Origin: Malacoraja senta
Lineage: Eukaryota
Assembly: GCA_038087875.1 (NCBI GenBank)
Contig: CM075991.1
Span: 1,426,001 to 1,490,000 of the forward strand
Length of the DNA: 64,000 bases
Reading direction: 5' to 3'
Shown in pieces: positions 5,201 through 45,612 of this stretch. Numbering within the stretch: position 1 is the first letter of the stretch; every line of letters starts with the position of its first letter. The notes below the pieces were generated by a model, which had not been told where the DNA came from, searched no databases, and worked only from the letters and a program-made list of their open reading frames with translations. The translations under genes were made by a program, and so were the position numbers.

Positions 5201-5919
5201 CCGCAACTCTTCCAGCTTTCTCACCACCCCATACAATTTGTATGACGGATCCCGACCTGAAACATCCCCTTATCCCTGATCTCAACAGATGGTGTCTGAC
5301 CCGCTAACTTACTCCAGCAATTTGTGTCTTTTCTATATAAACCACCATTTGCAGTTCCTTGTATCTCCCCTTGGATTTCCCTGGCAGCCCATTCCGAAAC
5401 ATTGGGCGACCATAACGACATATTAATAATATATGTCAACTGGTTCTCAGCAAATCAGTAAGATTATATAAAGGAAACCTTTAAATGATCAATGGCGTCA
5501 TTTAACTGATGTGGGCCCCGGGCGCCAACACTGGCCCGCGCCGCCTGCCCGGACACCACCAGGCCGAGTCCCTCGACGCCATCTTTGCCACGAGGAGCAG
5601 CACCAGCTCTCACCGCCTCCCTGACCGACCTCAGGCCCGGACACCGAAGATGCCGCCGTCGCCGTCCTCCACCCACCCACCCACCAATGACGCCGATCCT
5701 CGCTGCTTCACCGGTAACTCTGACTCGACGAGTCCCCGCGCGCCTCCACCATTGACGCTCCCGACTCTCGCCACTCCACCGCCCTCCTGCAGGCCGCAGC
5801 CGTCGCCTTACCGGAGTCCCAGGCTCAGCACCGGGCCTGAAGTCTCCACGCTGCAGACTCTAACATCACGGGGTCTGACTGTGCTGGGTCCTAGTGCCCG
5901 TTCCCCTGACAATGGGAAT

Positions 5920-5955: not shown

Positions 5956-6039
5956 ATGGGAATCTAAGTGGTTATCCCACTGGGTCTTCCCCTTCCCCCT
6001 TAAACCATGTGACCCACAGCTCCTCCCCACCCACACTAT

Positions 6040-6075
6040 CAAAGATTATATAGCGGAGCTCCTCTAGTATCTTTG
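6040..6075. mobile_element. 36-bp palindromic micro-MITE, copy 2
   Basis: CAAAGATTATATAGCGGAGCTCCTCTAGTATCTTTG flanked by 8-bp TSD CACACTAT (6032-6039/6076-6083); absent at ~38380. Confidence 0.85.
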
Positions 6076-6159
6076 CACACTATAGTCCTCATACCCCTCC
6101 TCCCTGACCACCCAGGACCCTCCTACCAGACATCGCCTCGGCCTCCGTCCACTCACATG

Positions 6160-6514
6160 CCTTCCTCCCCCCTTACCCCCACCCCCACCATCCCCCCTTA
6201 CCCTCATCACCCCCTACCCCCACCATTCCCCCCCTACACCGACCATTCCCCCCCCACCGCCCGCCTCCACCATCCCCCCACCCCCCCTATCCCCACCCAC
6301 CCCTACCCTCACACACACCCCTCTCCTCCCACATAACCCCATCTCCCCCCACACACACACACCCCGCCCGACACACCCCGCCTGAAGCCGTCCCCGTCCA
6401 CGGTTACAGAACGCTCCCGCCATTGGGTTGGGGGAACAGGTGAGCGGTGGAATATTGCGTTGGGGGACCAGGCCTATCGTGTGACTGGGACGCAACGGGT
6501 CCCACTTAGTCTAG
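6160..6514 (+). mobile_element. Helitron 3' terminal fragment (same 3' family as 30657-37176)
   Basis: Ends GGGACGCAACGGGTCCC (hairpin)-ACTTAGTCTAG|T at 6514, then PLE resumes; matches reverse complement of 30657-30730; left boundary approximate. Confidence 0.8.
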
Positions 6515-7091
6515 TTATCTCTAACACTATCACTGGCTTCATCACTTCCGGCTCCCTGCCCTCCCAAGTCTCCAACCTCATCGTTCACCAGCCCTGCATG
6601 GCCCGATTTTACCTTTACCCCAAAATCTGCAAACCTGACTGTCCTGGCAGACCCATTTTTTCTGCTTGTTCGTGTCCCACCAAACTTATTTCCACATATG
6701 TCGTCTCCATCCTATCCCCCCTGGTTAAATCCCTCCCTACCTATGTTCAAGATACCTCACACGCTCTTCGTTTCCTCCATGACTTCCGTTTTCCCGGCCC
6801 CCATTCCCTCATCTTCACCGTGGATGTCCAGTCACTCTACACCTCCATCCCCCACCAGGAGGGTCTTAAAGCCCTCCGTTTCTTCCTTGACCGCAGGACC
6901 AACCAATCCCCGTCCACCGATACTCTCCCCGCCTTTATCTCCCCCCTCGACTCCATTCAAGGACCCAAGCTGGTCTTTACCCATAACAACTTTTTGTTTG
7001 ACTCCTCCCATTTCCTCAAAATCCAAGCTATGCCTGCCTCTTTGTAGGGTACGTCGAACAATCCTTGTTCGAGGCATACCGTGGCCCTATC

Positions 7092-13325: not shown

Positions 13326-16300
13326 AGATATAGAAAATAGGTGCAGGAGGAGGCCATTCGGCCCTTCGAGCCAGCACCGCCATTCATTGTGATCATGGCT
13401 GATCGTCCCCTATCAATAACCCGTGCCTGCCTTCTCCCCATATCCCTTGACTCCACTAGCCCCTAGAGCTCTATCTAACTCTCTCTTAAATCCATCCAGT
13501 GATTTGGCCTCCACTGCCCTCTGTGGCAGGGAATTCAATAAATTCACAACTCTCTCGGTGAACAATTTTTTTCTAACCTCAGTCTTAAATGACCTCCCCT
13601 TTATTCTAAGACTATGGCCACTGGTTCTGGACACCCAACATTGGGAACATTTTTCCTGCATCTAGCTTGTCCAGTCCTTTTATAATTTTATATGTTTCTA
13701 TAAGATATCCCCTCATCCTTCTAAACTCCAATGAATACAAGCCTAGTCTTTTCAATCTTTCCTCATATGACAGTCCCGCCATCCCAGGGATCAATCTTGT
13801 GAACCCACGCTGCACTGCCTCAATCACAAGGATGTCCTTCCTCAAATTAGACCATAACTGTACACAATACTCCAGAAGTGGTCTCACCAGAGCCCTATAC
13901 AATTGCAGAAGAACCTCTTTACTCCTATACTGAAACCCTCTTGTTATGAAGGCCAACATTCCATTAGCTTTCTTCACTGCCTGCTGTACCTGCACGCCAA
14001 CTTTCAGTGACCGGTGTACAAGGACACCCAGGTCTCGCTGTACCTCCCCCTTACCTAACCTAACCCCATTGAGATAATAATCTGCCCCCTTGTTTTTGCC
14101 GCCAAAGTGGATAACCTCACATTTATCTATATTATACTGCATCTGCCACGCATCTGCCCACTCACTCAGCTTGTCCATGTCACCCTGCAACCTCCTAACA
14201 TCCTCTTCACAGTTCACACTGCCACCCAACTTTGTGTCATCCGCAAGCTTGCTAGTGTTGTTCCTAATTTCCTCTTCCAAATCATTAATATATATGGTAA
14301 ACAGTTGTGGCCCCAACACCGAGCCTTGCGGCACTCCACTCGCCACTGCCTGCCATTCTGAAAAGGGCCCGTTCACTCCTACTCTTTGCTTCCGGTCTGC
14401 CAACCAATTTTCTATCCATGTCAACACCCTACCCCCAATACCATGTGCTCTAATTTTAGTCAATAGTCTCCCGTGCGGGACCTTATCAAAGGCTTTCTGA
14501 AAGTCTAGATACATTACATCCACTGGCACCCCTTCATCCATTTTACTTGTCACATCCTCAAAAAATTCCAGAAGATTAGTCAAGCATGATTTCCCTTTGA
14601 TAAATCCATGTTGACTTGGACTAATCCTTTTACTGCTATCCAAATGCCCCATTATTACCTCTTTAATAATTGACTCCAGCATCTTTCCAACCAATGAAGT
14701 CAGGCTAACTGGTCTGTAATTCCCCCTTTTCTCTCTTGCTCCTTTCTTGAAAAGTGGGATAACATTAGCTATCCTCCAATCCACAGGAACTGATCCTGAA
14801 TCTATTGAACATTGGAAAATGATCACCAATGCGTCCACTATTTCTAGAGCCACCTCCCTGAGGTCCCTGGGATGCAGACCATCAGGCCCAGGGGATTTAT
14901 TATCCTTCAGTCCCATTAGCCTACCCAATACTATTTCTCACCTAATGAAAATTGCTTTCAGTTCCTCTACCCCCTTAGATCCTCTGTCCTCCAGTACATC
15001 TGGGAGATTGTTTGTGTCTTCCTTAGTGAAGACAGATCCGAAGTACCTATTCAACTCTTCTGCCATTTCCTTGCTGCCCATAATAATTTCACCCGTGTCT
15101 GCCTTCAAGGGACCCACATTTGACTTTGCTACTCTTTTTCCCTTAACATATCTAAAGACGATTTTACTGTCCTTCTTTATATTCCTGGCCAGCTTCCCCT
15201 CGTACTTCATCTTTTCAGCCCGTATTGCCCGTTTTGTTTCCTTCTGTTGTCCTGTGAGCATTTCCCAATCCTCTGGCTTCTGGCTACTCTTTGCTCTGTT
15301 ATACATCTTTTCTTTTAGTTTTATTCTAGCCCTAACTTCTCTTGTCAGCCACGGTTGCCTCCTACTCCCCTTAGAATCTTTCTTCATTTTTGGAATGAAA
15401 TGATCCTGCGTCTTCCGGATTATGCCCAGAAATTCCTGCCATTGCTGTTCCACCGTCATTCCTGCTAGGATCCCTTTCCAGTCTACTTTGGCCAGCTCCC
15501 CTCCCATGCCTGCATAGTCCCCTTTGTTCAACTGCATCACTGCCACTTCCGATTTAACGTTCTCCTCAAATTGCAGATTAAAACTAATCATATTATGATC
15601 ACTACCTCCAAGCGGTTCCTTTACCTCACGTTCTCTTATCATATCTGGTTCATTGGACAACACTAAATGCAGAATTGCGTTTTCTCTGGTCGGCTCCATT
15701 ACAAGCTGCTCTAAGAATCCATCTCGGAGGCATTCTACAAACTCTCTTTCTTGGGGTCCTGAACCAACCTGATTTTCCCAGTCTACCTACATATTGAAAT
15801 CCCCCATCACCAACGTGGCATTACCTTTGTTACATGCCAGTTTTAACTCCTGCTGCAACTTACAACCTACATCCGGGCTACTATTTGGGGGTCTCTAAAT
15901 ATCACCAATTAGTGTCTTCTTGCCTTTACAATTCCTCAACTCAATCCACAGTGACTCTACCTCGTCAGTCCCTGTCTTCCCTCGCAAGGGACTGAATTCC
16001 CTCCCTCACCAGCAGAGCTACCCCCCCTCCTCTGCCCACCTGCCTGTCCTTTCTATAGGATGTATAACCCTGAATATTAAGTTCCCAGGCTGGATCCTCC
16101 TGGAGCCACGTCTCAGTGATCCGCACAATGTCATATCCACCAACCTCTAACTGAGCCTCAAGCTCATCTACTTTACTCCTTATACTTCGCGCATTCATAT
16201 ACAATACTTTTAATTCCTTACGCATCTCACCTTTCACATCGATCCCTATTACACTTGGCCATACTCTCCTATCCCTTTGTGAGCTTCCTTTCCCGTTAAT

Positions 16301-16715
16301 TCTGGGGTCATTAACCATCCCTTTACTCTCTTTCCCTTTAACTCAATTTTCGACTATCCCATTTGACACCCCCCCTCCCTTATTCAGTTTAAAACCACCC
16401 GTGTAGCAGTGGCAAACCTGGCTGCCAGAATGCTGGTCCCCCACCTGTTAAGATGCAATCCGTCCCTTTTGTACAGTTCCCCCTTACTCCAAAACAGATC
16501 CCAGTGATCTAAGAATCTAAATCCCTGCCCCCTGCACCAGTTCCTCAGCCACACATTCAGGTCCCGTATCTCCCTGTTCCTGCTCTCGCCAGCACGAGGA
16601 ACTGGAAGCAAACCGGAGATAACAACCCTGGAGGTCCTGCTTTTCAGCATGTTTCCGAGCTCTCTAAAGTCACGCTGCAGAATATTTATCCCCTTCTTTC
16701 CGACATCGTTTGCGC
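13326..16715 (-). mobile_element. CR1 LINE, near full-length ORF2 plus ORF1 SGNH-esterase 3' part, disabled
   Basis: ORF 13612-14928 RT ([25 protein letters not shown]); 14938-16318 APE endonuclease pieces; 16384-16650 SGNH-like (DGLHLN); CR1 3' tail. Confidence 0.93.
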
Positions 16716-18501: not shown

Positions 18502-20115
18502 TCACTCAGCTGTTGTATTAGTCTTAATGCACTCACTCATCAGGGGTCCCATGTCTCTTAATATTTTCTGATATTCCATGAGTGCCCGACAGTAAGATTC
18601 ATTTCCTGTTACAAATGATGGGAAGAGATTTATAGGTTCTGCTTTCAGAAGAAATTCTGGAATTCCAATTTGTTGAGGAAATGTTTGATTTCCAATCATA
18701 AATCTGTGTAGGCATTTCTCATCCAAACATTTCCCAAGATACTTTAACACATCTCTGAGCCGATGTTCCAGGTGACATTCCTGCCAGTTTGAATACGGCT
18801 GACTTAATAGCAAATGCATCAGGACAGTCTTAAAGATATAGGAGCCAAGAACACATCGCTGGTCTGGTGAATGGCACACTCTTTCAGTCAGAACGATCAG
18901 TATTTGAAGGCACTTGAGGTGACAGGAGCTTTTGGGGATATTCTTGGTCATGATTTTGAGAAACCTGTACTCACAGACAGCACAGGAAATGTGCCAGTAG
19001 ATAGTGGGTACTGTACTTTTCTTGGGGAAATTGGAAAACGAGGTACAAGATGGACATCGGAACCCTTCAGCCTCACAGCAGGAATGATTTTGATGTGAAT
19101 AGTTCGTCCTGACTGATATTGTACTTTTAAACCACAGCAACCAGTAATATTACGGAAGGTAATTTCCAAATTCATTTTGATCACAAATTTTCTTCCATGA
19201 TTTGGATAATAAAACCCTGAACCATTTCACTACCTTCTTATAATCCAAATAACAATCGGAATCCATGATAGAAGCAAGACCATTGGAATGAACATCATGT
19301 TTGAATCCTTTGTTGTGAATAAGACAAAGAATGTCCCCTTCAGGTTCTTTGGTTTCACATTGGCTAGCCAGGTTAGCGTTGTTTGCTGTAACCATGAGAA
19401 TCCTGCTGAAACTCTGTTTCTCACGTGGGACGTCACAGGAACAGATTTCTGGTTTAAAACAATAACCATTCTGGAGAAAAATTGGAACCAAAATATAATA
19501 TACGGATGGTATCTTACAGCTCCAATTTTCAAACTGACTCCCAATGCCCACACAGTCATCGAGGATCAGCTCTGAGCTCCACGGACAAAGATTCCGACCA
19601 GCTTCTAAAAGACTGTCCACAAACATTTTACAAATTTACTGGTCTCAATTGGTCTTGGCTCCCATTTTGAATGCAGATGTTGTAGAACTGATCCAACACA
19701 TTTTGATCAGGGCTATTCAAAATATTGTTGTGATGAGGTCTTCGAGGAACTTCATCTTGCATTTCTTCCTGCTCTTCCTCATTATCATAGTCTTGGGATT
19801 ATTTGCAAAATGTCACCTCTTCAGTCCCAAGATCTGAATTATGACCAGTATGAGCGTAATATAGGTGTTCCAGTACTTTTTTGGTGAATCTTCCCTATCT
19901 GCAGATAAATGGATCTTTATATTAGTCTGATAGTTACTTTTTCCCTCCATTTTGTTCTGGAGCCATTCTATCTGCTGTTGGTACGGGTACTCATGTTCCT
20001 TAATTCTATTCTGGACCTCTTCTGTCTCCACTTCATCACTCAGGAGGCGGGGATGGTACAAGCTCCCTGTGATCATCAGAACACACACGTTGAAAAGCTT
20101 TATCGCAGTTGTCAT
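18502..20115 (-). pseudogene. ITPRIP/ITPRIPL-like (Mab-21 fold) copy 1, at least three frameshifts
   Basis: ORFs 19813-20115, 19150-19626, 18948-19184 and 18502-19140 are colinear with the 531-aa ORF; frame breaks at ~19825, ~19175 and ~19035; acceptor TTTATAG|GATG. Confidence 0.85.
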
Positions 20116-26060: not shown

Positions 26061-29000
26061 ATCCCATCTGTTGCCGCAGAAACCCGTCTGTACCTCTCAC
26101 AATGGAGTCTCCCACTACAATGGCGTTGCCTGACGTCGGCCTCTTTGGTTTTGGCTCAACAGCACTTTTTGCTTCTCAAGCTAGTCCGCCGCTCAGTGTG
26201 TTAACGTCTTCTGTCCTGACAGCTTCTAAGTGAGTGAACCTGTTCATAAGAGGTACAACACCCGGGGACCTTTGCATTCCATGTTTCCTTCCCTTTCTCA
26301 CCGTCACCCACCTTCTCTCTTCCAGTACCTTAGGTGTAACAATCTTACTGTAGGACTTGTCGAGGAACGACTGTTTCTTGGACGAACCTGAGGTCATCCA
26401 CTTGCTTCTCCAGTTCCCCAACACGGTCCTTCAGGAGCTCTACCTGGATGCACTTCTCACATTTGTAGCAGCCAGAGGCACCAGCGGTGTCCTTGACCTC
26501 CCACATCCTGCAAGCATCACACTGAATTAGCTTGCTTGACATCTCCTTCTTTCGTCTCTCCCCCTCCAGCGTTTGGTGTGGCGTCCTCCCTCAACCTCCT
26601 CGCCGAAGAATCGCAGCCGAAGACTCGCACTTTTCTCACAGGGCACTTCCCTCGACAGGGCCGCACCCCTTGAGCAAGTCTTGCTTATATCAGATGCTAA
26701 ATTGCCGAATTGCCCAATTTACCAATCTTCCAAACTAATTGTTCAGCCAATCCCCGCACTCACTCCTAATCTTCCTTCCTCTGATGAGCTTGGAAGTATG
26801 TGCTTTGTCCGACCTGCACTCAAAGACTTCTAAAGTGCCTTTTGCACCCTTTTATACCTGCTCTACCTGTGACTCACCAAGTCCAGCCAACGGTCGTGTC
26901 TGAAGAAGGGTTTCGGCCCGAAACGTTACCTATTTCCTTCGCTCCATAGATGCTGCTGCACCCGCTGAGTTTCTCCAGCATTTTTGTGTACCTTCGGTCG
27001 TTCTCACTGCTGCTTTGTCCGACCTGCTCTCAAACTCTTAGAATTATTTCCCAGGGAAAAATATACCTCACCATTTCTTCCACAGATGCTGCCTGACCGG
27101 CTGAGGTACTCCTGTACTTTGTGTTTTACTTAAGGTTCCAGCATCTGCAGTGCCTTGTGTCTCCATTCTACTACCTCGCCATCTAACATGGTTCTGATCT
27201 ATAAAGTTTAAAATGTGACCTTTTTCTCTCCAATCTCTCTGGCAGAAACAAATATTGGCAGAAACGTTATCTTTATCTTCGTAATCAAATCTCTCCTTAA
27301 CACTGAGCCTTAAGAAGGAAGAATGAAGAGAAGCACAAATAAATGGCATATGTGTAGTGAAATAAACCCATGAACCTATGTCTAAATGTTTAAGAAGGAA
27401 CTGCAGACACTGGAAAATCAAAGGGATCGAAAAATGCTGGAGAAACTCAGCGATGAGGCAGCATCTATGGAGCGAAGGAAATAGGCAACGTTTCGGGCCG
27501 AAACCCTTCTTCAGACAACGTATGTCTAAATATTTGTTTCAAAAAAGCTTTGGTAAATCTTAGTTTTTTTATCAGAGGAACAAAGTCCAAAAAATAGGTC
27601 ACAGTAAGAAGTTAGCCTCAATGTAGTTCTCAGCAATAAAGAGGTTAGACTTTATTGCCTTCCATCACAGTGAGGAATGTGGGGAATCCGCTGTGGTGGA
27701 TGTTTATGTTAATTTCTATGTAGTTGTGTGTCTTTTGTTGCTTTTTTTAGTATGGCTGTATGGTAATCGAGTTTCACTGTAGCTTAATTGGTACACACGT
27801 GACAATAAATGACATTTGAAACCTTTGAGCATTAAACTTTGTGAAAGGTGTAAATTCTATGGAAAATGGTACCTACAAGATCCGTGATTATTTCCGACTT
27901 TCCAGAATCCATTTTTGTTTGTCCTGATACCCAATGGTTTACTAAAATTGTTAACTTAAATCTATGAATCTATCTGTACAGCACAGAAACAGGTCCTTCT
28001 GCCCACAATGTCCGTGTGGAACATGAGAGATCTACATGTGATCCACATCTCTCCATTTCTTGCATGTCCAAGCCCCCATCTAAAAACCTTTTAAATGCCC
28101 ATCGAACCCACCCATAGCAGCGCGTATCAGGCACCCACCGCTTTGTGCAAACAATTTGCCCTGTATATCTCCACTTATATAAAGCTATTACCTCTGGTCT
28201 CTCAAAGTTTTATGTACTTCTAATCTTTGGTCGAAAGAATGAATAATCGAAGGAATGGTTTTGAAGGTGAAAGGGGAAAAGGGGAGAAGATGTGTACATA
28301 CATTTTCCAGGGGTGGTGGGTGCCTGGAGCGTGCTGCCAGGGTTGGTGTTGAGATAGATATGATGATGGCATTTAAGAGGCGTTTGGATAGGCAGGGAAT
28401 AGTGCAATATGGATTATGTGTATGTATATAAGAGAAAGTATTGACATCATATTTGCCACAAATATTGTGGGAAGAAGAATGCGTACTTGTGCTGTATGTT
28501 TCTAGGTTTTATCTATATTCATAATTGTCACCCCATGATTGTTTTTCCTCAATATACTTTGGACTTTTCGGCATACTTGGTCCTCCATACTTTGAAACAC
28601 TTGCTACTCACATCCAATGTCAGCTTTTTTGCCACTGACATTTTTAAAGATCTTGGCCAAGTGAGCAAGCAAGATCTCACAGATTAGGTATCCACAATGA
28701 TTTAACAACATTATGGTACTAATAACATCTTTGATGAGAATTACTCCCTTATTTGAATGCAAAGCATTATTAAAATTAAAAAATGAAATTATTTTCACTT
28801 TCTCAATAATTGAGTAAATTGATAAATGTCAGATATGAACTAACCTTAACTCATGAAACAATCTGCATTTTTCATCCAACATATTTAACATTAAGTTCAC
28901 AGGCCTGTCATTGATTCTAATATTCCTTTTTTGGCTTAATTCACCATGCTTTTCATCAATTACCCTCAACTACATTCTATCATGTTACAGATCATCTATT

Positions 29001-29436
29001 TTGTTCCTGCCCATCCACTACCCCACCACCTCACTTTCTCTGCACAGTAGGTTCTCTAACTTTTACACAATTCATATATTTCTTTAGTCATAGATGAGGC
29101 CAAATGTGTTTGTATGTCAGCAATTTTTCAATTTCAGATTTTTAACGAATGTTGTTTTGGAATTGGTGGGTAACACACGCTTAAAAGGTACATTGACGAA
29201 AAGATGTGTTCCAAAACATTTGGGAGGAACACATGCATATTATACGTAAATAATGTATTCTTGAAAATAAGAATGTAGGAGAGAAGCATGTCACGAGTAG
29301 GAAGAAACTGAGGAAAAGTAAATATTTAAAGAGGAAGAATTTGAGTGTCTGTAAGTACATTGATCACATTGCCAAGGATTGTGTGTTTTACCTTGGTTAA
29401 ATAATACATCTGCTTGGGTATATCCTGTATCGTTAG

Positions 29437-29720
29437 GGTTTGTTGAGGCACTCTCACCTCTAAATCAGAAGAAAGTGGGTTCAAGTTCTACACCAATGAT
29501 TTAGGCATAAAATCTCGGCTGGCACTCCAGTGCATGACTGAAGGAAGTCTGCACCGTCAGAGGTGCTGTGTTTCACATGAGATATTAGACGGAGGCCCCA
29601 CCTGCTCTCTCAGGTGGATGAAAAGGATCCCATAGCACTATTTTGAAGAGCAGAGAGTTGTCCCCGATTTCCTGACCAATATTTATTCCGCGATCAACAA
29701 TGTTAAAATTCCTCAATCAA
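29437..29720 (+). mobile_element. DeuSINE, duplicated copy of 4246-4502
   Basis: Same Deu-domain-like sequence (AAAGGATCCCATAGCACTATTTTGAAGAG). Confidence 0.7.
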
Positions 29721-30131
29721 AATTATTATACGTGGCAGAATATTACTCACAAATTAGTCGCGGTTCTTAAATGATAACAGTAACTATAGTTCAAAAGTAT
29801 GGAAATAAGTGTAAAAGATTTCAGCAAAGTGCAACAGTAACCCGGGAAGGAAATTGACCAGAGTTCGTTTTTCTTTGTAAGAGATGCAGCCAAGTTAAGT
29901 AATGAAGAGATATATAATGAAGAGCAATATATTTAATGAAACATGCTGGAGGGATCCTGATTGAGAAGGCAAAAGTTTCAAACTGACGAGGAAGAGGCGT
30001 TAAACGAGGGAAGGAAGGGTGACGGACCTTCTGTAACCTGGCCTTACTGCAGCGGCTTGATGCCGCGTCCAGGGCCGCTGAGCCCGTCGACCACCAGGCC
30101 AGGAATGCCTTGTGTGCCCACTGTCTCTTAC

Positions 30132-30425
30132 CTGGTCGATTGTGGCCCCAAAGCTCCACTTGACACAGAGCTGGGGCGTCGCTACACAGGCGCGGTTCAC
30201 ACCGCTGTGTGTGGGAAGCGCCGCCTGCCTATACTCACACCGCTGACCCGCAACAATGCTACCCCCTGTGACGCCACTGGCCGTCAAGCAGCTGGGGGAT
30301 CCCGGGCAACTACCTGCAGGAGCGCCTGTGCCCTCAACTCGACGCGTCCGCAGCCCCGCTGTCATCGTCGGCTCCCCCACAGGATGAAAGTCAATGAATC
30401 CGCACCGACAGTGTCCCCGTTGTCC
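30132..30425 (-). promoter_or_regulatory. CpG-rich candidate promoter/non-coding first exon (copy B) for ITPRIP-like copy 1
   Basis: Donor CAG|GTAAGA at 30132/30131; correct strand and side to splice to the acceptor at 20116. Confidence 0.42.
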
Positions 30426-30867
30426 CCGCAACTCTTCCAGCTTTCTCACCACCCCATACAATTTGTATGACGGATCCCGACCTGAAACATCCCCTTATCC
30501 CTGATCTCAAAAGATGGTGTCTGACCCGCTAACTTACTCCAGCAATTTGTGTCTTTTCCATATAAACCACCATTTGCAGTTCCTTGTATCTCCCCTTGGA
30601 TTTCCCTGGCAGCCCATTCCGAAACATTGGGCGACCATAAGGTCATATTAATAATACTAGACTAAGTGGGACCCGTTGGGTTCCAGCTTCACACGGGAGG
30701 GCTGGTCCCCAATGCAATATTCCACCTCTCCACCAATTCCAATATTACTGGCCAGTGAGGGGGGGGGGAGGATGGGGGTCTTTCTGGAGCGCTAGTATGT
30801 GTTGTGGGTCAAAGGGACTGGTTTCCAGAGGGCTAGTATACATTGTGGGCCGAATGGATTCTTGGGC

Positions 30868-31212
30868 TTGCAGCTCAGTCACTCAGGGCAGGCTGCTCAG
30901 TCACTCAGGCGAGGCAGCCCAGTCACTCAGGCCAGGCAGCTCAGTCACTCAGGCCAGGCAGCTCAGTCACTCAGGCTGTCGTGCGCTGAAGGGACTGGTT
31001 TCCAGAGGACTAGTATGGACATTGTGGACTGAATGGATTTTTAGACTTGCAGTTCAGTGAGTCATGGCTGGTGGGCTGGCAGTTCACTAAGTAATGGCTG
31101 GTGGGCTGGCACTTCAGTCACTTACAGCTGGTGGGCTGGCAGTTCACTTACTCATGGCTGGTGGGCTGGCAGCCCAGTCACTCACGGCTGGTGGTGGCAG
31201 TTCACTCAGTCA
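30868..31212. repeat. Short tandem arrays (22-bp and 30-bp units sharing GCAG.TCAGTCACTCA)
   Basis: GGCAGCTCAGTCACTCAGGCCA repeats ~30868-30976; GGCAGTTCACT..TCATGGCTGGTGGGCT repeats ~31048-31212. Confidence 0.85.
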
Positions 31213-31599
31213 CCCCTCCTCCCTTCACCCCCCCTCTGCTCCATGCCATTCCCTCCCCCGCACGCATTCAGTCCATCTCCCCTCAACCTCCCCCCCCCAT
31301 GCACTCTTAGTGGCTCTCCGACAGCGCAACCATTCCTGCCTATTAGACGCAGGCATGGCAAGTGGAAAAAGGATTTATTAAAGTTTAAAATGTAAATGAC
31401 TTAAAATATAACAACAATTTAAATCTTAAAGATGAGATTTATTAAGTTCTTTCTTGTGTCTCTTGCTGTGTTCTGCTGCTCATTCCCTCTTGGTAACACT
31501 TTGCTGTTGATATAAAAAAATATAAATTTTAATATAGAGAGATTAAGCGGTCACATTTTAACAAAGAAAATCTGAGAATTTACCTCAAAAGTCATCATG

Positions 31600-31872
31600 G
31601 AGTGCAGGCCGCAGGTCCAACCTCACAGCACTCCAAGCAGAGTGCAGGCCGCAAGTCCAACCTCACAGCACTCCAAGCAGAGTGCAGGCAGCAAGTCCAA
31701 CCTCACAGCACTCCAAGCAGAGTGCAGGCAGCAAGTCCCACCTCACAGCACTCCAAGCAGAGTGCAGGCAGCAAGTCCAACCTAACAGCACTCCAAGCAG
31801 AGTGCAGGCAGAAAGTCCGACGCACAGCACTCCAAGCCAGCAAATCCAATTTCACAGCATTTCAAGCAGAGT
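31600..31872. repeat. 40-bp minisatellite, ~6-7 copies
   Basis: GAGTGCAGGCAGCAAGTCCAACCTCACAGCACTCCAAGCA. Confidence 0.95.
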
Positions 31873-32360
31873 GCACACACATACAGACACACACACCCAA
31901 AGACACTCACACACATGCAGACAGAGAGACACACACAGACAGACACACACACAAAGACACACTCACACAGAAATACAAACAAACAGAAAGACACACACAC
32001 ACACATTCACAAACACGTACACACACTCACACAGACACTCACACTCACACAGATACCCAGAAACTCACGCAGATGCACACTCACAGACACACATACAGAC
32101 ACACAGACAGACACTCTTACCCAGAGACACAGTCAAACACTCACACACACATACACAGACACTCACACATACATACACACTCATACACAGACACACACAC
32201 ATACACAGACACTCACACTCATCCACAGGCACGCACACAGACACAGACACAGACACACATACACACGCACAGACACGCATGCACAGACACACACACAGAC
32301 ACACACACACAGACACACATACACTCACACACACACAAAGACACAGACACACACACTCAC
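31873..32360. repeat. Imperfect (CA)n microsatellite
   Basis: CA/CAGA-rich tract. Confidence 0.95.
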
Positions 32361-32594
32361 CATATATTTGGCAGTCAAATTTTTTGAATACTCAAACGGC
32401 TAAGCGCGGGCGTCTCCAATTTGGGCCTTCCGCAGCCTGCAACACTTCCGCATTCAGCATGACCTCTGTACTCACCGGAAATGACGCAATCAGCGTGACC
32501 TGTCCACTAAGCGGAAATCACGAAATGAGCGGGACTTTTGCAGTAAACACAGTCGGGCCTAATAAAGCATTTATTCCTTCCAGGGACAGCTGTT

Positions 32595-35500
32595 GCAAAA
32601 GGCACAGCTGTTGCAAAAGGCACATTTCAAAAGCCACCTTTATTTCAAAAGCCACATTTCACAAGCCACATTCATTTCAAAAGCCACATTTCAAAAGCTA
32701 CATTTATTTCAAAAGCCACGTTTCAAAAGCTACATTTATTTCAAAATCCACATTTCAAGTCACATTTCTTTCAAAAGCCACATTTCAAAAGCTACATTAT
32801 TAAAAGCCACATTTATTTCAAAAGCCAAACCTCGAAAGCCACATTTATTTCAAAAGCCGCATTTCTTTCAAAAGCCACATTTATCTCAAAAGCCACACCT
32901 CAAAAGCCACATTTATTTCAAGCCACATTTATTTCAAAAGCCACACCTCAAAAGCCACACCTCAAAAGCCACATCTTTCAAACGCCACATTTCTTTCAAA
33001 AGCCACATTTCTTTCAAAAGCCACATTTCAAAAGCCACATTTTAAAAGCTACATTTATTTCAAAAGCTACATTTCAAAAGCTACATTTATTTCAAAAGTC
33101 ACGTTTCAAAAGCTACATTTATTTCAAAAGCCACATTTCAAAAGCTACATTTATTTCAAAAGCCACATTTCAAAAGCTACATTTATTTCAAAAGCCACAT
33201 TGCAAAAGCTACATTTCCAAAGCCATATTTATTTCAAAAGCCACACCTCAAAAGCCACATTTATTTCAAGAGCCACATTAATTTCAAGAGCCACATTTAT
33301 TTCAAGAGCCACATTTATTTCAAAAGCCACACCTCAAAAGCCACATTTATTTCAAAGCCCACCTCAAAAGCCACATTTCTTTCAAAAGCCACATTTCAAA
33401 AGCCACATTCATTTCAAAAGCCACATTTCAAAAAGCACATTAATTTCAAATGCCACATTTCCAAAGCAACATTTCTTTCCAAAGCCACATTTCTTTCCAA
33501 AGCCACATTTCCTTCAAAAGCCACATTTCAAAAGCCACATTTATTTCAAAAGCCACTCCTCAAAAGTCATGTTTATTTCAAAAGCCACGTTTATTTCAAC
33601 AGCCACGTTTATTTCAACAGCCATGTTTATTTCAACAGCCACGTTTATTCCAACAGCCACGTTTATTTCAACAGCCACACCTGAAAAGCCACATTTCTTT
33701 CAAAAGCCACATTCAATCCAAAAGCCACATTCATTTCAAAAGCCATTCATTTCAAAAGCCACATTTATTTCAGCCACATTTACTTCAAAAGCACATTTCA
33801 AAAGCCACATTTATTTCAAAAACCACACCTCAAAAGCGACATTACAAAGCCACATTTCTTTCAAAAGCCACATTTCAAAAGCCACATTTATTTCAAAAGC
33901 CACACCTCAAAAGCCACATCTCAAAAGCAACACCTCAAAAACCACATTTCAATAGCCACATTTCTTTCAAAAGCCACATTTCTTTCAAAAGCCACATTCA
34001 TTTCAAATGCCACATCTCAAAAGCCACATTTCTTTCAAAAGCCACATTTCAAAAAGCACATTTGTTTCAAAAGCCACATTTCCAAAGCCACATTTCTTTC
34101 AAAAGCCACATTTCTTTCAAAAGCCACATTTATCCCATAAGCCACACCTCAAAGGCTACATTTATTTCAAGAGCCACATTTCCTTCAAAAGCCACATTTC
34201 AAAAGCCACACCTCAAAAGCCACACCTCAAAAGTCACATTTCTTTCGCCACGTTTATTTCAAAAGCCACATTTCAAAAGCCACATTTATGTCAAAAGCCA
34301 CACCTTAAAAGCCACGTTTATTTCAAAAGCCACGTTTATTTCAAAAGACGCGTTTTTTTCAAAAGCCACGTTTATTTCAAAAGCTACGTTTATTTCAATA
34401 GCCACGTTTATTTCAACAGCCACGTTTATTTCAACAACCACGTTTATTTCAACAGCCACGTTTATTTCAACAGCCACACCTCAAAAGCCACATTTCAAGC
34501 CACATTTCTTTCAGCCACATTCAGTCCAAAAGCCACATTCATTTCAAAAGCCATTCATTCAAAAGCCACATTTCTTTCAAAAGCCACACTTTAAAAGCCA
34601 CATTTCTTTCAAAAGCCACATTTCAAAAAGCACATTTATTTCCAAAGCCACATTTCCAAAGCCACATTTCTTTCAGAAGCCATATTTCTTTCAAAAGCCA
34701 CATTTATCCCAAAAGCCACACCTCAAAAGCCACATTTATTCCAAGAGCCACATTTTCTTTAAAAGCCACACCTCAAAAGCCACACCTCAAAAGCCACATT
34801 TCTTTCAAGCCACGTTTATTTCAACCGCCACACCTCAAAAGCCACATTTATTTCAAAAGCCACATTTCAAAAGCCACATTTCTTTCAAAAGCCACATTCA
34901 GTCCAAAAGCCACATTCAGTCCAAAAGCCTTTTATTTCGAAAGCCATTCTTCAAAAGCCACATTTATTTCAAAAGCCACATTTATTTCAAAAGCCACATT
35001 TATTTCAAAAGCCACACCTCAAAAGCCACATTTATTTCAAAAGCCACGCCTCACAAGCCACATTTATTTCAAAAGCCACATTCATTTCAAAAGCCGCATT
35101 TCAAAAGCCACATTTCAAAAGCTACATTTATTTCAAAAGCCACATTTCCAAAGCTACATTTATTTCAAAAGCCACATTTCAAGCTACATTTATTTCAAAA
35201 GCCATTTCAAAAGCCACATTTACTTCAAAAGCCACATTTCAAAAGCCACATTTCTTTCAAAAGCCACACCTCAAAAGCCACATTTCTTTCAAGAGCCACA
35301 TTTCTTTCAAGAGCCACATTTCTTTCAAAAACCACACCTCAAAAGCCACCTCAAAGCCACATTTATTTCAAAAGCCACACCTCAAAAGCCACATTTCTTT
35401 CCAAAGCCACATTTCAAAAAGCACATTAATTTCAAAAGCCACATTTCCAGTCACATTTCTTTCAAAAGCTACATTTCCTTCAAAAGCCACATTTCAAAAG

Positions 35501-35887
35501 CCACACCTCAAAAGCCACACCTCAAAAGCCATATTTATTTCAAAAGCCACATTTCAAAAGCCACATGTCTTTCAAAAGCCACATTTCTTTCAAAAGCTAC
35601 ATTCAGTCCAAAAGCCACATTCATTTCAAAAGCCATTCATTTCAAAAGCCATTCATTTCAAAAGCCACTCATTTATTTCAAAAGCCACATTTATTTCAAA
35701 AGCCACATTTATTTCAAAAGCCACACCACAAAAGCCACATTTATTTCAAAAGCCACATTTCAAAAAGCACATTTATTTCAAAAGCCACATTTCAACAGCC
35801 ACGTTTATTTCAACAGCCACACCTCAAAAGTCACATTCCTTTCAAAAGCCACATTCCTTTCAAAAGTCACATTCATTTCAAAAGCCA
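32595..35887. repeat. 3.3-kb minisatellite of mixed 18/14-bp units
   Basis: AAAAGCCACATTTATTTC / AAAAGCCACATTTC / AAAAGCCACACCTC. Confidence 0.97.
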
Positions 35888-36019
35888 GTGCCACTGAGCG
35901 GAAATGATGCACTCAGCGCCCCCTCTCCACTAAGCGGGTCACGGAATGAGCGGCCATTTTGCATTAAACAGTCCTGATTGAATAAAACGTTTATTCACGA
36001 TTATTCCTTCCGAAAACAG

Positions 36020-36824
36020 TTGCAAGCATTTTAGAACCAATAGAGACACTTTTTGCAAGCATTTTAGAACCAATAGAGACACGTTTTGCAAGCATTTTAG
36101 AACCAATAGACACTTTTTGCAACCATTTTAGAACCAATAGACACTTTTTGCAACCATTTTAGAACCAATAGACACTTTTTGCATTTTAGAACCAATAGAG
36201 ACACTTTTTGCAAGCATTTTAGAACCAATAGAGACACTTTTTGCAAGTATTTTAGAACCAATAGACACTTTTTGCAACCATTTTAGAACCAATAGACACT
36301 TTTTGCAACCATTTTAGAACCAATAGACACTTTTTGCAACCATTTTAGAACCAAAAAAGACACTTTTTGCAACCATTTTAGAACCAATAGACACTTTTTG
36401 CAAGCATTTTAGAACCAATAGAGACTTTTTGCAAGCATTTTAGAACCAATAGACACTTTTTGCAACCATTTTAGAACCAATAGAGACACGTTTTGCAAGC
36501 ATTTTAGAACCAATAGACACTTTTTGCAACCATTTTAGAACCAATAGACACTTTTTGCAACCATTTTAGAACCAATAGACACTTTTTGCATTTTAGAACC
36601 AATAGAGACACGTTTTGCAACCATTTTAGAACCAATAGACACTTTTTGCAACCATTTTAGAACCAAAAAAGACACTTTTTGCAACCATTTTAGAACCAAT
36701 AGACACTTTTTGCAACCATTTTAGAACCAAAAAAGACACTTTTTGCAAGCATTTTAGAACCAATAGACACTTTTTGCAACCATTTTAGAACCAATAGAAA
36801 CTTTTTGCAACCATTTTAGAACCA
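36020..36824. repeat. 31-bp minisatellite (~25 copies), most units with CCAAT
   Basis: TTTTAGAACCAATAGACACTTTTTGCAACCA and length variants. Confidence 0.97.
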
Positions 36825-37669
36825 CATTAAGGGCACTCACAGTTGAGTAGACATGTGTTCAGTGTTATTCACAGCTCAGAGAGACGTGACCCTCTTGCTT
36901 ATCCATCTTGCAAAGACTGACTGAGGCACAACACTTCCGGGTTTTATAGTCCCTCCCCCCTGCCGCCAGCGGGGGCAGCAGAGAGAATGGCGAAATTTTT
37001 AAAAACATTAATATCTCTCTGATTTTCCATCGATGGGAAAAATCCTCCAGTCCAGTCCGGAGGAGGGGGATCTGAGCGAGGTGGCCAAACATGACGGCCG
37101 TAAGTGGCGGCGTTCTCTCAGAAATCACAAAACAGTAAGTCAGATCCGGTCAAGATCTTAGTTTTAGTAATGTAGATATGTCAAATGGTTTTCAGCAAAC
37201 GCAGTAAGATTATTTAAAGGAAACCTTTAAATGATCAATGGCGTAATTTAACTGATGTGGGCAAATTCTGCTGATGAGGAGCGGAAACTAAAGAGGACAT
37301 CAAAGACACATGGCCCTCTAGGAGAACCATTTCTCCTTATCTTTGTTAGCAACCGTGTTTAATTAGTGACCCTCCACTTCTCCATTGCCTCACAAGAGAA
37401 TCACCCTCTCCTCAGCAACGCAATGGCCCTTCTGGATCAAGTCCATTCCGCTTCTGCCGATCCTGTACTCAACCCGGATGAGATGGGATGGGCCCAGTTA
37501 AGGTATTTGACAAAATACTGAATGCATACAAGATGGATATCCCCGCCCCCCTAGGTTGTTCTTTGTGAAAGGTTGAGAATTTGGAAACAATTGTTCTTCA
37601 TAAACTTCAATATCAAAGTCTAATAAATGGGTTGGAAATAGAAGGCTTACCTCGGTTCGACTATCCCGA

Positions 37670-40600
37670 ATCTTCGGGCCTCACTCACCCAGCTCTACTT
37701 CATCCAACGGCAGATCCGCACCTTCAATCAACGATTCCTGGCAGACTTGGACTCCACCATGGACCTTAAACTTGCCCACCTCCAGGCCGCTCCTGCCACC
37801 GACACTCTGCGACTCGACCGCCTGTAGGCCCCAGGCCCTAACACCTGCCCTAACGCCTGCCCGGACACCACCAGGCCGAGTCCCGCGATGCCATATTTGC
37901 ATCGAGGAGCAGCACCAGCACTCACTGCCTCCCTGACCGACCTCAGGCCAGGACACCGAAGATGCCGCCATCGCCGATCTTTACCCACCCACCAATGACG
38001 CCGATCCTTGCTACCTCCTCGGCTCCTCCGACTATCGGCACCAAAACGGGCCCGTTGAACCTCGCCGCCTCACTGGCCATCCGCTGACCGAAACCTCCTA
38101 CGCTTCGCCCGCTGACCCCGGACTCCACTCCCCGGGAGCCTTTACCATTGACTCTACCGACCCTCGCCACTACGCCCTCCAGCAGGCCGCAGCCGTCGCC
38201 TTACCTGAGTCCCAGGTTCAGCACCGGGCCTGAAGTCTCCACGCTGCAGACTAACATCACGGGGTCTGACTGCGCTGGGTCCTAGTGCTCGTCCCCCTGA
38301 CACAGGGAACCTCAGTGGTTATTCCACTGGGTTTTCCCCTTCCCCCTTAAACCATGTGACCTCAACTCCTCCCCACCCACACTATAGTCCTCATACCCTC
38401 TCCTCCCTGACCACCCACCACACCCCCTACCAGACATCGCCTCAGCCTCCGTCCACTCACCTGCCTCCCCCCGGCCCCAACCCCCATCGTTGCCGTGTGT
38501 TCACCATCCCCCCTGACCTCCCCCTCTCTGATACCGAACAGTCTGTTTTCAGCAGAGGCCTCACCTTTGTTCCCCTCCATCCCCACCTCAATGAGTTCCG
38601 CGTCCGCCACGATGTGGAGCTCTTCTATCGCCTCCGCCTCAAAGTGTTCTTCCATGGGAAGGAGTCCTCAACCCCCAGTGATAACCCCTTCTTCAGTCTC
38701 CAACGGATCCTCGCTTATTGGACACCCCCTCATGGCCATCTACCGGCTTTAGACCATTTTATTTTAAACTGCCAGGGGCAGCAACCCAGACTGGGTGATC
38801 AATCCTGCCGACAAGGGAGGTGCCGTGGTAGTCGGCCGCACTGATCTCTACAAGTCTGAGGCCATGCGCTAACTCTCAGACACCTCCTCCTACTTATCCT
38901 TGGACCATGAACCCACAGACGAGCACAGGCCATTATCTTTAACTCACTGGCTTCATCACTTCCGGCTCCCTGCCCTCCCAAGCCTCCAAACTCATCATTC
39001 CACAGCCCCGCATGGCTCGATTTTACCTTCTCCCGAAAATCCACAAACCTGACTATCCTGGCAGACCCATTGGTTCTGCTTGTTCGTGTCCCATTGAACT
39101 TATTTCCACATACCACGACTCCATCCTATCCCCCCTGGTTAAATCCTTCCCTACCTATGTTCAAGACACCTCACACGCTCTTCGTCTCCTCCATTTCCAG
39201 GCCCCCATTCCCTCATCTTCACCATGGATGTCCAGTCACTCTACACCTCCATCCCCCACCAGGAGGGTCTTAAGGCCCTCCATTTCTTCTTCGACCGCAG
39301 AACCATCCAATCCCCGTCTACCGATACTCTCCTCCGCCTAGTCCTTCCCCTTAACAACTTTTCATTTGACTCCTCCCATTTCCTCCAAATCAAAGGCGTA
39401 GCTATGGGCACGTGCATGGGCCCAAGCTATGGGCCCTGCCTCTTTGTAGGATACGTCGAACAATCCTTGTTCGAGGCGTAACGTGGCTTTATCCCCGAAC
39501 TCTACATCCGCTACATCGACAACTGCATTGGTGCTACCTCCTGCACCCATGCAGAACTCACTAACTTCATCCATTTCACCACTAACTTCCATCCGGCACT
39601 CAAATGCACCTGGACCATTTCCGACAACTCCCTACTGTTTCTAGACATAGAAACATAGACATAGAAAATAGGTGCAGCAGGAGGCCATTCGGCCCCTCGA
39701 GCCAGTACCGCCATTCATTGTGATCATGGCTGATCGTCCCCTATCAATAACCCGTGCCTGCCTTCTCCCCATATCCCTTGACTCCACTAGCCCCTAGAGC
39801 TATAGAAACATAGAAAATAGACCTCACTACATCGCAGGTAACAGACTACTGACCGATATCTACTATAAACCCATTGACTCCCATGGCTATCTGGACAACA
39901 CTTCTTCCCACCCTGCTTCCTGTAACAACTCCATTCCCTACTCTCAATGCCTCCGTCTATGCCGCATCTGCACCCACGATGAGGTGTTCCAAACCAGGGC
40001 ATCTGAGATGTCCTCATTCTTTAGGGAACGGGGGTTCCCCTCTTCTACTATAGGTGAGGTTCTCACCGGGGTCTCTTCTATACCCGGTAACTCTGCTCTC
40101 ACTCCCCATCCCCCCACTTGTAACAAGGGCAGAGTCCCCCTTGTCCTCACTTTCCACCCTACCAACCGTCACATACAACAGATAATCCTCCGACATTTTC
40201 GCTACCTCCAACAGGATCCCACCACTGGCCACATCTTCCCATCTTCTCCCCTTTCAGCTTTCCGCAGAGACTGCTCCCTCCGTAACTCCCTGGACAATTC
40301 GTCCCTTCCCACCCAATCCATCCACTTTCCTGGTACTTTCCATTGCAACTGCAGGAAAGCTACACTTGTTGCTTTACCTCCCCCCTTGACTCCATCCAAG
40401 GACCTAAGCAGTCTTTCCGGGTGCGGCAGAGGTTCACCTGCACCTCTTCCAACCTCATCTATAGCATCCGCTGCTCTGGGTGTCAGCTGCTCTACATCGG
40501 TGAGACCAAGCGTAGGCTTGGCGATCGCTTCGCCCAACACCTCCGCTCGGTTCGTAATAACCAACCTGATCTCCCGGTGGCTCAGCAGTTCAACTTCCAC

Positions 40601-40940
40601 CCCCATTTCGACTCTGACCTTTCTGTCTTGGGCGTTCTCCATGGCCAGAGTGAGGATCACTGTAAATTGGAGGAGCAGCACCTCATATTTCGCTTGAGTA
40701 GTTTACACCCCAGCGTTAAGAACATTGACCTCCAATTTCAGGTAGTCCCTGCTTTCTCCCTCTTTCCCCTCCCTTTCCCAGCTCTCCCACAGCCCACTCT
40801 CTGCCTCTTCCTTTCTTCTTCTCGCCCCCCCCCCACCCCCACATCAGTCTGAAGAAGGGTCTCGACCCAAAACGTCGCCTTTTTCCTTCTCTCCATAGAT
40901 GCTGCCTCACCCGCTGAGTTTCTCCAGCATTTTTGTCTAC
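37670..40940 (+). mobile_element. Penelope-like element, near-complete but degenerate (RT + GIY-YIG), with short CR1 tail insertion ~39646-39817
   Basis: ORFs 38356-39481 RT; 40343-40852 IYSIRCSGCQLLYIGETKRRLGDRFAQH (GIY-YIG). Confidence 0.92.
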
Positions 40941-40999
40941 TATCATATTTGGAGTAAGGCAAGCTTTCCCACTCCTTTTGCTTGTGTATGTTGAATATT

Positions 41000-44016: not shown

Positions 44017-45612
44017 TCAGTCAGCTGCTGTATTATTTTTAAAACACTCCATCATCAGCGGTCCCATGTCCGTTAAGATTTTCTGATATTCCATGAGTGC
44101 CTGACAGTAAGAGTCAGGTTCTGTTACGAAAGACTGGAAGAGGTTTATAGGTTCTGCTTTTAGAAGCAATTCTGGAATTCCAATTTGCTGAGGAAAAGTT
44201 TGATTTCCAATCATAAATCTGTGGAGTCTTTTCTCGTCCAAGCATTTCCCAAGATATTTTAACACATCTCTGAACCGATGTTCCAGGTGACATTCATGCC
44301 AGTTTGAATATGGCTGATTTAAGAGCAGATGCATCAGGACAGTCTTAAAGGGATAGGAGCCAAGAACACATCGCTGGTCTGGAGAACTACACAGTTTTTC
44401 AGTGAGAACGGTCAGTATTTGAAGACACTTGAGGTGACAGGAGTTTTGGGGGATATTTTTTGTCATGATTTTGAGAAACCTGTACTCACAGACAGCACAG
44501 GAAATGAGCCAGTAGGTGGTGGGCACTGTACTATTCTTGGGGTAATCTGAAAAACGAGGTACAAGATGGACATCGGAACCCTTCAGCCTCACAGCTGGAA
44601 AGACTTTGATGTGAATAGTTCGTCCTGACTGATATTGTACTTTTAAACCACAGCAACCAGTAATATTACGGAAGGTAATTTCAAAATCATATTGATGACA
44701 AATTTTCTTCCAAGATTTGGTTAATAAAATCCTGAACCATTTCACTACCTTCTTATAATCTAAATACCACTCGGAATACACAATAGAATCAAAACCATTG
44801 GTTTCAAATCCTTTGCTGTGAATCAGACAAAGAATATCCCCTTCAGATTCCCCGGATCTGGGAAGGTCAGCATTGTGTGGTGTAACCATGAGAATCCTGC
44901 CATAACTCTGTGTTTCAGGTAGGACGTCACAGGAACACATCTCTGGCTTAAAACAATATCCATCCTGGAGAAAAATAGGAACGAAAATATCATATACAGA
45001 TGGTATCTTGCAGCCCCATTTTTCAAACTGACTCCCAATGCCCACACAGTCTTCAAGGATCATCTCATAGCTCCACGGACAAAAATTCCGACTGCCTTCC
45101 AAAAGATTATCCACAAAACATCGTACAAATTCACACGTCTCAACTGGCTCTTGGCGCACATTTTGAATGCAGATGTTGTAGAACTTATCCAGCAAAGTTT
45201 GATCAGGGGTATTCAAAATGTTGTTGTGAGTTCTTCGAGGAAATTCATCTTGCTTTTCTTCCTCCTCTTCCTCACTGTTATAGTCCTGGGGATTCCGTTG
45301 CAAAATGTCACCTCTCCAGAGCCCAAAGATCTGAATTGTCACCAGTATGACTGTAATATAGATGTTCCAATTCATTTTTGGTGAATGTTCCGTATCTGCA
45401 GATAAATGGGTCTTTTTATTAGGCTGATGGTTACTTTTTCCCTCCGTTTTGCTGTGGAGCCATTCTATCTGCTGTTGGTACTGGTACTCATGTTCCTTAA
45501 TTCTATTCTGGACCTCTTCTGTCTCCACTTCATCACTCAGGAGGCGGGGATGGTACAAGCTCCCTGTGATCATCAGAACACACATTTTGAAAAGGTTTAA
45601 CGCTGCTGTCAT
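44017..45612 (-). CDS. ITPRIP/ITPRIPL-like protein, 531 aa (hydrophobic N-terminus, coiled coil, TM, acidic patch, Mab-21/cGAS-like NTase fold)
   Basis: Intact single-exon ORF; TM NIYITVILVTIQIFGLW; EDCVGIGSQFEKW..YDIFVP; SCHLKCLQIL; LGSYPFKTVLMHLL; CLDEKRLHRFMIGN; AEPINLF; acceptor TTTTGATAG|GATG. Confidence 0.9.
   Translation of the reverse strand: MTAALNLFKMCVLMITGSLYHPRLLSDEVETEEVQNRIKEHEYQYQQQIEWLHSKTEGKSNHQPNKKTHLSADTEHSPKMNWNIYITVILVTIQIFGLWRGDILQRNPQDYNSEEEEEEKQDEFPRRTHNNILNTPDQTLLDKFYNICIQNVRQEPVETCEFVRCFVDNLLEGSRNFCPWSYEMILEDCVGIGSQFEKWGCKIPSVYDIFVPIFLQDGYCFKPEMCSCDVLPETQSYGRILMVTPHNADLPRSGESEGDILCLIHSKGFETNGFDSIVYSEWYLDYKKVVKWFRILLTKSWKKICHQYDFEITFRNITGCCGLKVQYQSGRTIHIKVFPAVRLKGSDVHLVPRFSDYPKNSTVPTTYWLISCAVCEYRFLKIMTKNIPQNSCHLKCLQILTVLTEKLCSSPDQRCVLGSYPFKTVLMHLLLNQPYSNWHECHLEHRFRDVLKYLGKCLDEKRLHRFMIGNQTFPQQIGIPELLLKAEPINLFQSFVTEPDSYCQALMEYQKILTDMGPLMMECFKNNTAAD

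Follow-up and report, generated by a model that had tools for sequence, protein, structure and literature searches.

The 6520-bp segment at positions 30657–37176 of a stretch of Malacoraja senta DNA (64,000 nucleotides; assembly GCA_038087875.1, contig CM075991.1, positions 1,426,001 to 1,490,000 of the forward strand; hereafter the window) is a non-autonomous Helitron of the canonical class HLE1, inserted on the minus strand in the second of two duplicated units, the first of which shows the empty site. We consider it very probable that this copy is a decayed member of an abundant HLE1 group of batoids (skates) and that its interior, made mostly of tandem arrays, grew in situ. The element had been noticed in a preliminary description made from the sequence alone.

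The ends of the element and its insertion site

The segment is recognized as an insertion because the match between the two units, obtained by comparing the window with itself, stops at 30656 and resumes at 37176: 4242–5431 aligns with 29433–30656 at 94% identity, and 5431–5516 with 37176–37262 at 93%. On the plus strand the left junction reads ...AATAATA/CTAG (30656/30657) and the right junction ...GTAGA/TATGTC (37176/37177), slashes marking the points of insertion, and the empty site in the paralogous unit reads ...AATAATA/TATGTC. Read on the minus strand, the arrangement is A/TC...hairpin...CTAG/T, with a target that is not duplicated. The limits, the terminal motifs and the empty site had all been proposed in the preliminary description, and paralog alignment and junctions reproduce them to the base; the strand had not been stated there, and the hairpin has one mismatch in this copy. 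The features on which this assignment depends are the following.

30657..37176, minus strand: non-autonomous HLE1 Helitron, 6520 bp, 78% tandem arrays (paralog alignment, junctions)
30657..30660, minus strand: 3' terminal CTAG, followed by the target T (30656 on the minus strand) (junction; contig loose ends)
30668..30684, minus strand: 3' hairpin with a 7-bp stem and a 3-nt loop (arms 30668–30674 and 30678–30684)
36825..37176, minus strand: 5' unique segment (left terminal sequence), starting with TC after the target A (junction)
5431..5432, unstranded: empty A/T site in the paralogous unit (alignments)

By its published definition an HLE1 element has a 5' TC, a 3' CTRR, a hairpin and an A/T target without duplication (PMC11417382; here and below, statements on cited papers refer to the portions of their text that were available). 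In the present element the TC lies at 37176–37175 of the minus strand, where it is fixed by the paralog breakpoint; the CTAG at 30657–30660 forms a boundary that is identical in contigs of two other organisms; the hairpin stem begins 11 nt from the 3' end, the expected distance being about 10–12 nt; and the A/T insertion is free of any target-site duplication. Dispersal in many copies with unrelated flanks was found for the 3' end and the 3' kilobase only. With the ends set independently by the alignment, the probability of obtaining TC and CTRR ends together with an A/T target by chance, in either orientation, is about 1.7e-4.

The hairpin of this copy forms six of its seven pairs, the sole mismatch being at 30682. 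The pairing base is present at this position in 97–98% of the aligned contig depth in all four sequencing runs described below, which restores seven pairs out of seven. Because of this mismatch, the folding of the 44-nt 3' end of the present copy is no better than that of shuffled sequences (z of -0.6). A comparable GC-rich hairpin accompanies just 5 of the 449 CTRR/T sites of the window.

Two other classes were considered and rejected. Against HLE2 (Helitron2/Helentron/HINE), the target is A/T and not T/T, and there are no terminal or subterminal inverted repeats among the longest pairs, in a scan of each end by itself, or in the sequences of the junctions. Transposons of the Tc1/mariner type have terminal inverted repeats and a duplicated TA; a TA-duplicating transposon of this kind does not fit, because the two ends are not inverted copies of each other and the flanks of the occupied site have no letter more than the empty one. 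The terminal motifs had 0 matches in contigs of each of three groups, viral, prokaryote and metagenome.

Tandem arrays and their spacers

Arrays with units of 22, 30, 40, 18/14 and 31 bp and a CA tract were found by Tandem Repeats Finder (TRF) at the places where they had been described, together with a 2.4-copy 36-bp repeat that the description had missed. The six main arrays amount to 5107 of the 6520 bp, so that the element is mostly, at 78%, but not almost wholly made of arrays. The interior is organized as follows.

30812..30869, minus strand: spacer M-A, a duplicate of M-B (87%; alignment)
30870..30976, unstranded: 22-bp array, about 4.9 copies, a minority variant in the family and sister of the 30-mer (TRF; unit comparison; contig depth)
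30989..31048, minus strand: spacer M-B (alignment)
31049..31212, unstranded: 30-bp array, about 5.5 copies, the family-typical unit behind spacer M (TRF; contig depth)
31213..31599, minus strand: non-repetitive linker, which occurs in other organisms (contig depth)
31600..31837, unstranded: 40-bp array, 6 copies (TRF; contigs)
31874..32360, unstranded: degenerate CA-rich tract (TRF)
32449..32581, unstranded: spacer S1, holding a decayed 36-bp repeat, homologous to S2 (77%; TRF; alignment)
32582..35887, unstranded: about 200 units of 18 and 14 bp, interleaved in an array of 3.3 kb (TRF; unit parsing)
35893..36019, unstranded: spacer S2, homologous to S1 (alignment)
36020..36824, unstranded: 31/33-bp array, about 26 units with a mean period of 31.4 bp and T-tracts in rough helical phase (TRF)

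The arrays had been called different, and five unit lengths are indeed present, but they are not all unrelated. The spacers at 30812–30869 and 30989–31048 are 87% identical (score 151 against a shuffle maximum of 34), and the 22-mer behind the first aligns to the 30-mer behind the second if a gap of 8 bp is allowed in every unit (p = 0.002 when compared with shuffled units), making the two sister units. The spacers at 32470–32576 and 35893–35996 are 77% identical (score 114 against a shuffle maximum of 39), and the 18/14 and 31-bp arrays begin at an equivalent point behind them. For this second pair homology, as judged by alignment, is clear only for the spacers and the start points. Taken together these comparisons indicate that the arrays are homologous pairs of spacer and array and not independent cargo. 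Between the 40-mer and every other unit no homology was found (p of at least 0.058). When the 3.3-kb array was parsed into 180 pieces, 88 were 18-mers and 61 were 14-mers, and units drift gradually along the arrays. We also observed that S1 and S2 each keep a small AATAAA...TTTATT hairpin just before the array start (32561–32575 and 35981–35995). A search of Rfam at E-values up to 1 gave a single 17-bit match, inside the CA tract, which we put down to chance.

In the 31-mer array the strongest AA/TT period is 10.4 bp, and its tract vector is 8.2, above the maximum of 6.4 for the window background but with p = 0.078 against unit shuffles. Since 7.8% of shuffled units match it, the putative helical periodicity is only a lead. 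The helical period is absent as a leading peak from the 18/14, 30- and 40-bp arrays.

Copies in other organisms

Of the 21 sequencing runs listed, 20 (7 organisms, 9 studies) contain between 0.22 and 0.32 of the element's words. Contigs from four of them, one run per organism, were aligned to 30450–31645, a stretch that includes 989 of the 6520 element bases, and the other 16 were used as evidence of presence only. Contig depth is not copy number, and the depth ratios given here should be read as orders of magnitude only; the contig comparisons draw on the listed 24 of 2329 loose ends, 15 of 424 joints and 40 of 139 differences.

Against a flank depth (at 30620) of 16–143 in the four runs, depth is 10,084–35,342 times higher at the hairpin, 474–857 times at the 30-mer (position 31093), 66–3468 times at the linker and 704–6993 times at the 40-mer, and only 8–92 times at the 22-mer. 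The 3' end, spacer M, the 30-mer, the linker and the 40-mer are thus multicopy in the other organisms, where contigs run from the 30-mer into the linker and from the linker into the 40-mer. The 40-mer is also in tandem in all four, a joint going back by 40 being found in 15, 12, 11 and 6 contigs. Among the loose ends listed, unrelated AT-rich flanks ending in A exactly before 30657 occur in 125 and 141 contigs of two organisms, and the agreement of loose ends before 30656 is 0.4. The idea that the element disperses minisatellites holds in this sense for its 30- and 40-bp arrays, which reach hundreds to thousands of times the flank depth in four organisms.

The same contigs bear on the form of the family. 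Among the joints listed, one from 30799 to 30977, which skips module A (spacer M-A with its 22-bp array), occurs in all four runs, and another from 30885 to 31118, leading into the 30-mer array, in three of the four; loose ends at 30885 that run into a 30-mer-like unit were listed in 60, 42 and 31 contigs. These observations point to a single spacer M followed by the 30-mer as the usual form of the family. All four aligned runs also contain the flank, so their organisms are likely to be close relatives, and no sign for or against horizontal transfer was found in them.

Several results weigh against a whole element that moved as one family member and grew in place. The evidence from other copies is confined to the 3' kilobase, with the 5' end, the CA tract and the 18/14 and 31-mer arrays lying outside it; no aligned contig spans even the 1.2-kb stretch 30450–31645; and none of the 21 runs listed contains half of the element's words. 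Depth varies 10- to 100-fold along the 3' kilobase, the 40-mer being deeper than parts of the adjacent linker, so that the interior is a mosaic shared unevenly between subfamilies. The similarity between the 18/14 and 31-bp units is weak (p of 0.02–0.11 in six comparisons, uncorrected), no autonomous partner was linked to these ends, and the divergence that we use below for the age of the copy was taken from other organisms.

We also considered a one-off composite, in which a common Helitron 3' part was joined to pieces gathered at the locus, by nested insertions or end-bypass capture, and the 6.5-kb unit never moved whole. The steps in depth and the word content of the runs, 0.32 at most, would fit this explanation, and Helraiser is known to undergo end bypass and transduction (PMC4778049). 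A further point in its favor is found in the window itself, in a second 3' end with a different interior:

6433..6514, plus strand: second, related Helitron 3' end with hairpin and CTAG/T (85% identical over 85 bp)

The interior here is C-rich and a degenerate array of 16–20-bp units precedes the end, the whole (6202–6514) standing in place of about 415 bp of retroelement relic present in the paralog; no 5' end for it was found in the window. However, one single empty site is filled by the whole 6520 bp, which is bounded by TC and CTAG, the 30-mer, linker and 40-mer are bridged in other organisms, and neither an internal CTAG/T with a terminal-type hairpin nor terminal inverted repeats were seen inside 30657–37176. 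We therefore regard a composite as unlikely, although it is partly compatible with the interpretation of a group member that grew in situ.

Timing of the insertion

The window contains two collinear units about 25 kb apart, each ending in an ITPRIP-like gene.

44017..45612, minus strand: ITPRIP-like gene (Mab-21_C), intact, anchoring the unit with the element (open reading frame, Pfam, protein matches)
18505..20115, minus strand: ITPRIP-like paralog, broken, anchoring the unit with the empty site (87–88% DNA identity)

Some 6.8 kb separate the intact gene from the element, which is downstream of it. Among 47 matches to the ITPRIP-like protein, the best two (77–78%) are from Rhinoraja, a skate, other named cartilaginous fishes reach 54–69% and bony vertebrates at most 36%, in agreement with the elasmobranch host that had been supposed and pointing to a batoid, probably a skate.

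The paralogous flanks have a mean divergence of 4.8%. Between 4891 and 5415 and the corresponding stretch of the paralog, which ends near 30640, there are only 4 mismatches in 525 bp (99% identity; 2 of 20,000 permutations), and this appears to be a gene-conversion-like tract. It ends 16 bp before the Helitron site, whose surroundings (about 100 bp in all) still have 7 mismatches, a number that corresponds to the older level of divergence. The empty site is thus outside the recently homogenized tract, which favors insertion after the flanks diverged; we infer that the insertion itself may have halted the conversion tract.

It might be supposed, conversely, that the element was already in place before the duplication and was later erased from the first unit, through gene conversion with an empty allele or a third paralog as the donor, as the paralogs do appear to exchange sequence here. 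The end of the tract before the site and the 7 mismatches around it speak against such a loss, and so does a 725-bp contig from another organism in which the flank runs to exactly 30656 and is followed by at least 154 letters unlike the element (either paralog is possible). We judge this explanation highly improbable. That the arrays were inflated or joined by assembly error, a refutation foreseen in the preliminary description, is barely credible: 3.3 kb of short-period repeat and the lack of any read or contig seen to span the element would allow it, but mis-assembly is unlikely because exact internal repeats are at most 66 bp long in the array of 3.3 kb and 145 bp in that of the 31-mer, and units drift gradually and the flanks join exactly at the empty site of the paralog.

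An insertion after the divergence of the flanks agrees with the earlier proposal that the element mobilized after the duplication. At 29 of the 38 differences listed within the element, all four runs have another majority letter, which corresponds to at least 2.9% of the 989 bp, a value that mixes species and subfamily differences and is in line with the pairwise flank divergence of about 5%. With its broken hairpin, this copy looks old and decayed, and not recently mobile.

Coding content and sequence signals

No open reading frame for RepHel had been reported, and the present searches concur. The frames of at least 100 amino acids in the element are repeat-derived or short and of low complexity, a Pfam search with one internal frame (413 amino acids) gave 0 matches, no helicase-like text was noticed by eye in the six frames of the non-array segments, and inspection by eye of the open reading frames of the whole window revealed no RepHel. 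Long frames across the arrays were rejected as genes, being repeat read-through; the one checked is that without Pfam matches.

One putative transcription signal is predicted from consensus motifs:

36914..36948, minus strand: TATA box (36948), followed some 30 nt downstream by an initiator-like motif, the pair being directed into the element (predicted)

Such a pair occurred on the sense strand in 13 of 5000 dinucleotide shuffles, the motif having been spotted by eye beforehand. The linker 31213–31599 has two sense-strand AATAAA motifs (31443 and 31379), and AATAAA is also found dozens of times in the 18-mer array. The TATA/initiator pair and the AATAAA motifs could be what is left of a parental transcription unit. 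A sigma-70 promoter scan, irrelevant to a vertebrate, found none and gave one terminator-like hairpin, to which we attach no meaning.

Origin of the element and comparison with known Helitrons

For Helraiser it has been described that the left end is essential and that the hairpin, 11 nt from the end, is the main 3' signal; its insertions join the 5' TC to A and the CTAG to T, and non-autonomous elements are cross-mobilized (PMC4778049). By analogy with this biochemistry, a RepHel protein supplied in trans would have nicked at the 5' TC, displaced one strand as far as the hairpin and CTAG, and joined the copy into an A/T site without duplication. The interior would be free to grow because only the ends would be needed for transposition. 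The anatomy of the arrays suggests that they lengthened by slippage or unequal exchange, and that a spacer with the first repeat units was duplicated, changed its unit length and was amplified again, at least once (22/30) and probably twice (18-14/31), so that the element would both carry minisatellites and breed new ones. Insertion of this copy into the second ITPRIP-like unit would have followed the split of that unit's flank from the first, and decay would have come later.

Helraiser and HelibatN1–N3 resemble the skate element in the TC, the hairpin about 11 nt from the CTAG, the A/T target and a non-coding interior mobilized in trans (PMC4778049, PMC11417382). They differ from it in that 78% of the skate element is minisatellite, in six or seven arrays, and no captured gene was identified in it. 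Minisatellite-filled Helitrons are known from Xenopus, zebrafish, Drosophila, bivalves and bats (PMC12001565; review PMC9659126). Xenopus Heli2Xen/Helitron-N2_XT and zebrafish Helitron-N1_DR are likewise vertebrate, non-autonomous and mostly minisatellite, and for the elements of the Xenopus type an autonomous parent bounded by the shared arrays has been reported; Heli2Xen, however, is a Helitron2 with one 166-bp unit, whereas the skate element has HLE1 ends and several short units (PMC12001565). Oyster Cg_HINE Helentrons and Drosophila DINE-TR1 are also rolling-circle elements that spread central tandem arrays, but they are HLE2 elements whose inverted repeats are subterminal, and they have a single array or, exceptionally, two (some Cg_HINE contain two, related or unrelated), instead of six or seven in duplicated modules of spacer and array (PMC7492417, PMC9659126). 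In C. elegans, the minisatellites of HelitronY1/Y1A are the source of 10-bp Periodic A/T Clusters (PATCs) and resemble the 31-mer array as Helitron-borne minisatellites with an AA/TT periodicity of about 10.4 bp, putative in the skate; there the periodicity was gained after insertion and its function has been tested, while in the skate it would be a property of the unit, as predicted from sequence (bioRxiv 10.64898/2026.08.08.743475).

Among HLE1s of cartilaginous fishes, HELIANO Table S1 contains, under Repbase-style names, Helitron-1_AmRa and Helitron-2_AmRa (Amblyraja), skate RepHel entries known by name, and counts of 11,154 for Leucoraja (Table S10), 4818 for Mobula and 1651 for Hypanus have been given (PMC11417382). 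Those of skates agree with the present element in host group and class, and the order of magnitude of the Leucoraja count fits the 10^4-fold depth of its 3' end. Three terminal motifs had 0 matches in the available text and supplement of that paper, which do not give the AmRa terminal sequences, and six batoid and shark names had no match in five supplement files of PMC12001565. The word "Helitron" does not occur in the main text of the little-skate genome paper. We found no structural description of skate, ray or elasmobranch Helitrons in the open literature, a search that left out Repbase, Dfam and subscription papers and so does not amount to absence. Skate HLE1s and minisatellite-laden Helitrons are already published as such, and the family is probably already in Repbase or Dfam.

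What is added is a clean, textbook case of Helitron insertion, controlled by an empty site, from a lineage whose Helitrons appear as counts in a supplementary table but are not described structurally in the papers searched, together with the paired modules of spacer and array and the adjacent conversion boundary. A genealogy of arrays becomes visible, the 22-mer, behind its duplicated spacer, appearing as a derivative of the 30-mer, and other copies showing the simpler form. Skate Helitrons would thus be a tractable system for the birth of new minisatellite units, and possibly also for the way in which gene conversion between tandem paralogs is stopped by large insertions. A bolder proposal, which we hold to be quite improbable, is that the group is both a minisatellite nursery, whose modules duplicate, change unit length and spread genome-wide, and a working transcription unit, whose TATA/initiator drives transcription through the phased array. 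If this were true, the phased A-tract array of 31.4 bp (three helical turns), dispersed in hundreds to thousands of copies, could be a vertebrate counterpart of the C. elegans PATC insulators.

Other features of the duplicated units

Rhinoraja has two ITPRIP-like proteins that are 77% identical to each other, the contigs on which they lie having one and the same listed length, which suggests a batoid gene cluster with turnover. About 547 bp of the second unit (28887–29432) are absent from the first, the break being near 4244. By the look of their open reading frames, several segments are presumably retroelement relics of Penelope, Gypsy, L1 and CR1 types (37823–40950, 5510–9227, 7313–8119, 287–2410 and 13330–16322, among others); a Pfam search with two short Penelope-like fragments gave no match. 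Two 36-bp palindromic mini-elements with ends CAAAGAT...ATCTTTG, at 5920–5955 and 6040–6075, are absent from the paralogous unit, and each lies between two copies of an 8-bp direct repeat of its own (ATGGGAAT and CACACTAT); a duplication of this length suggests the hAT type, for which they would be unusually small.

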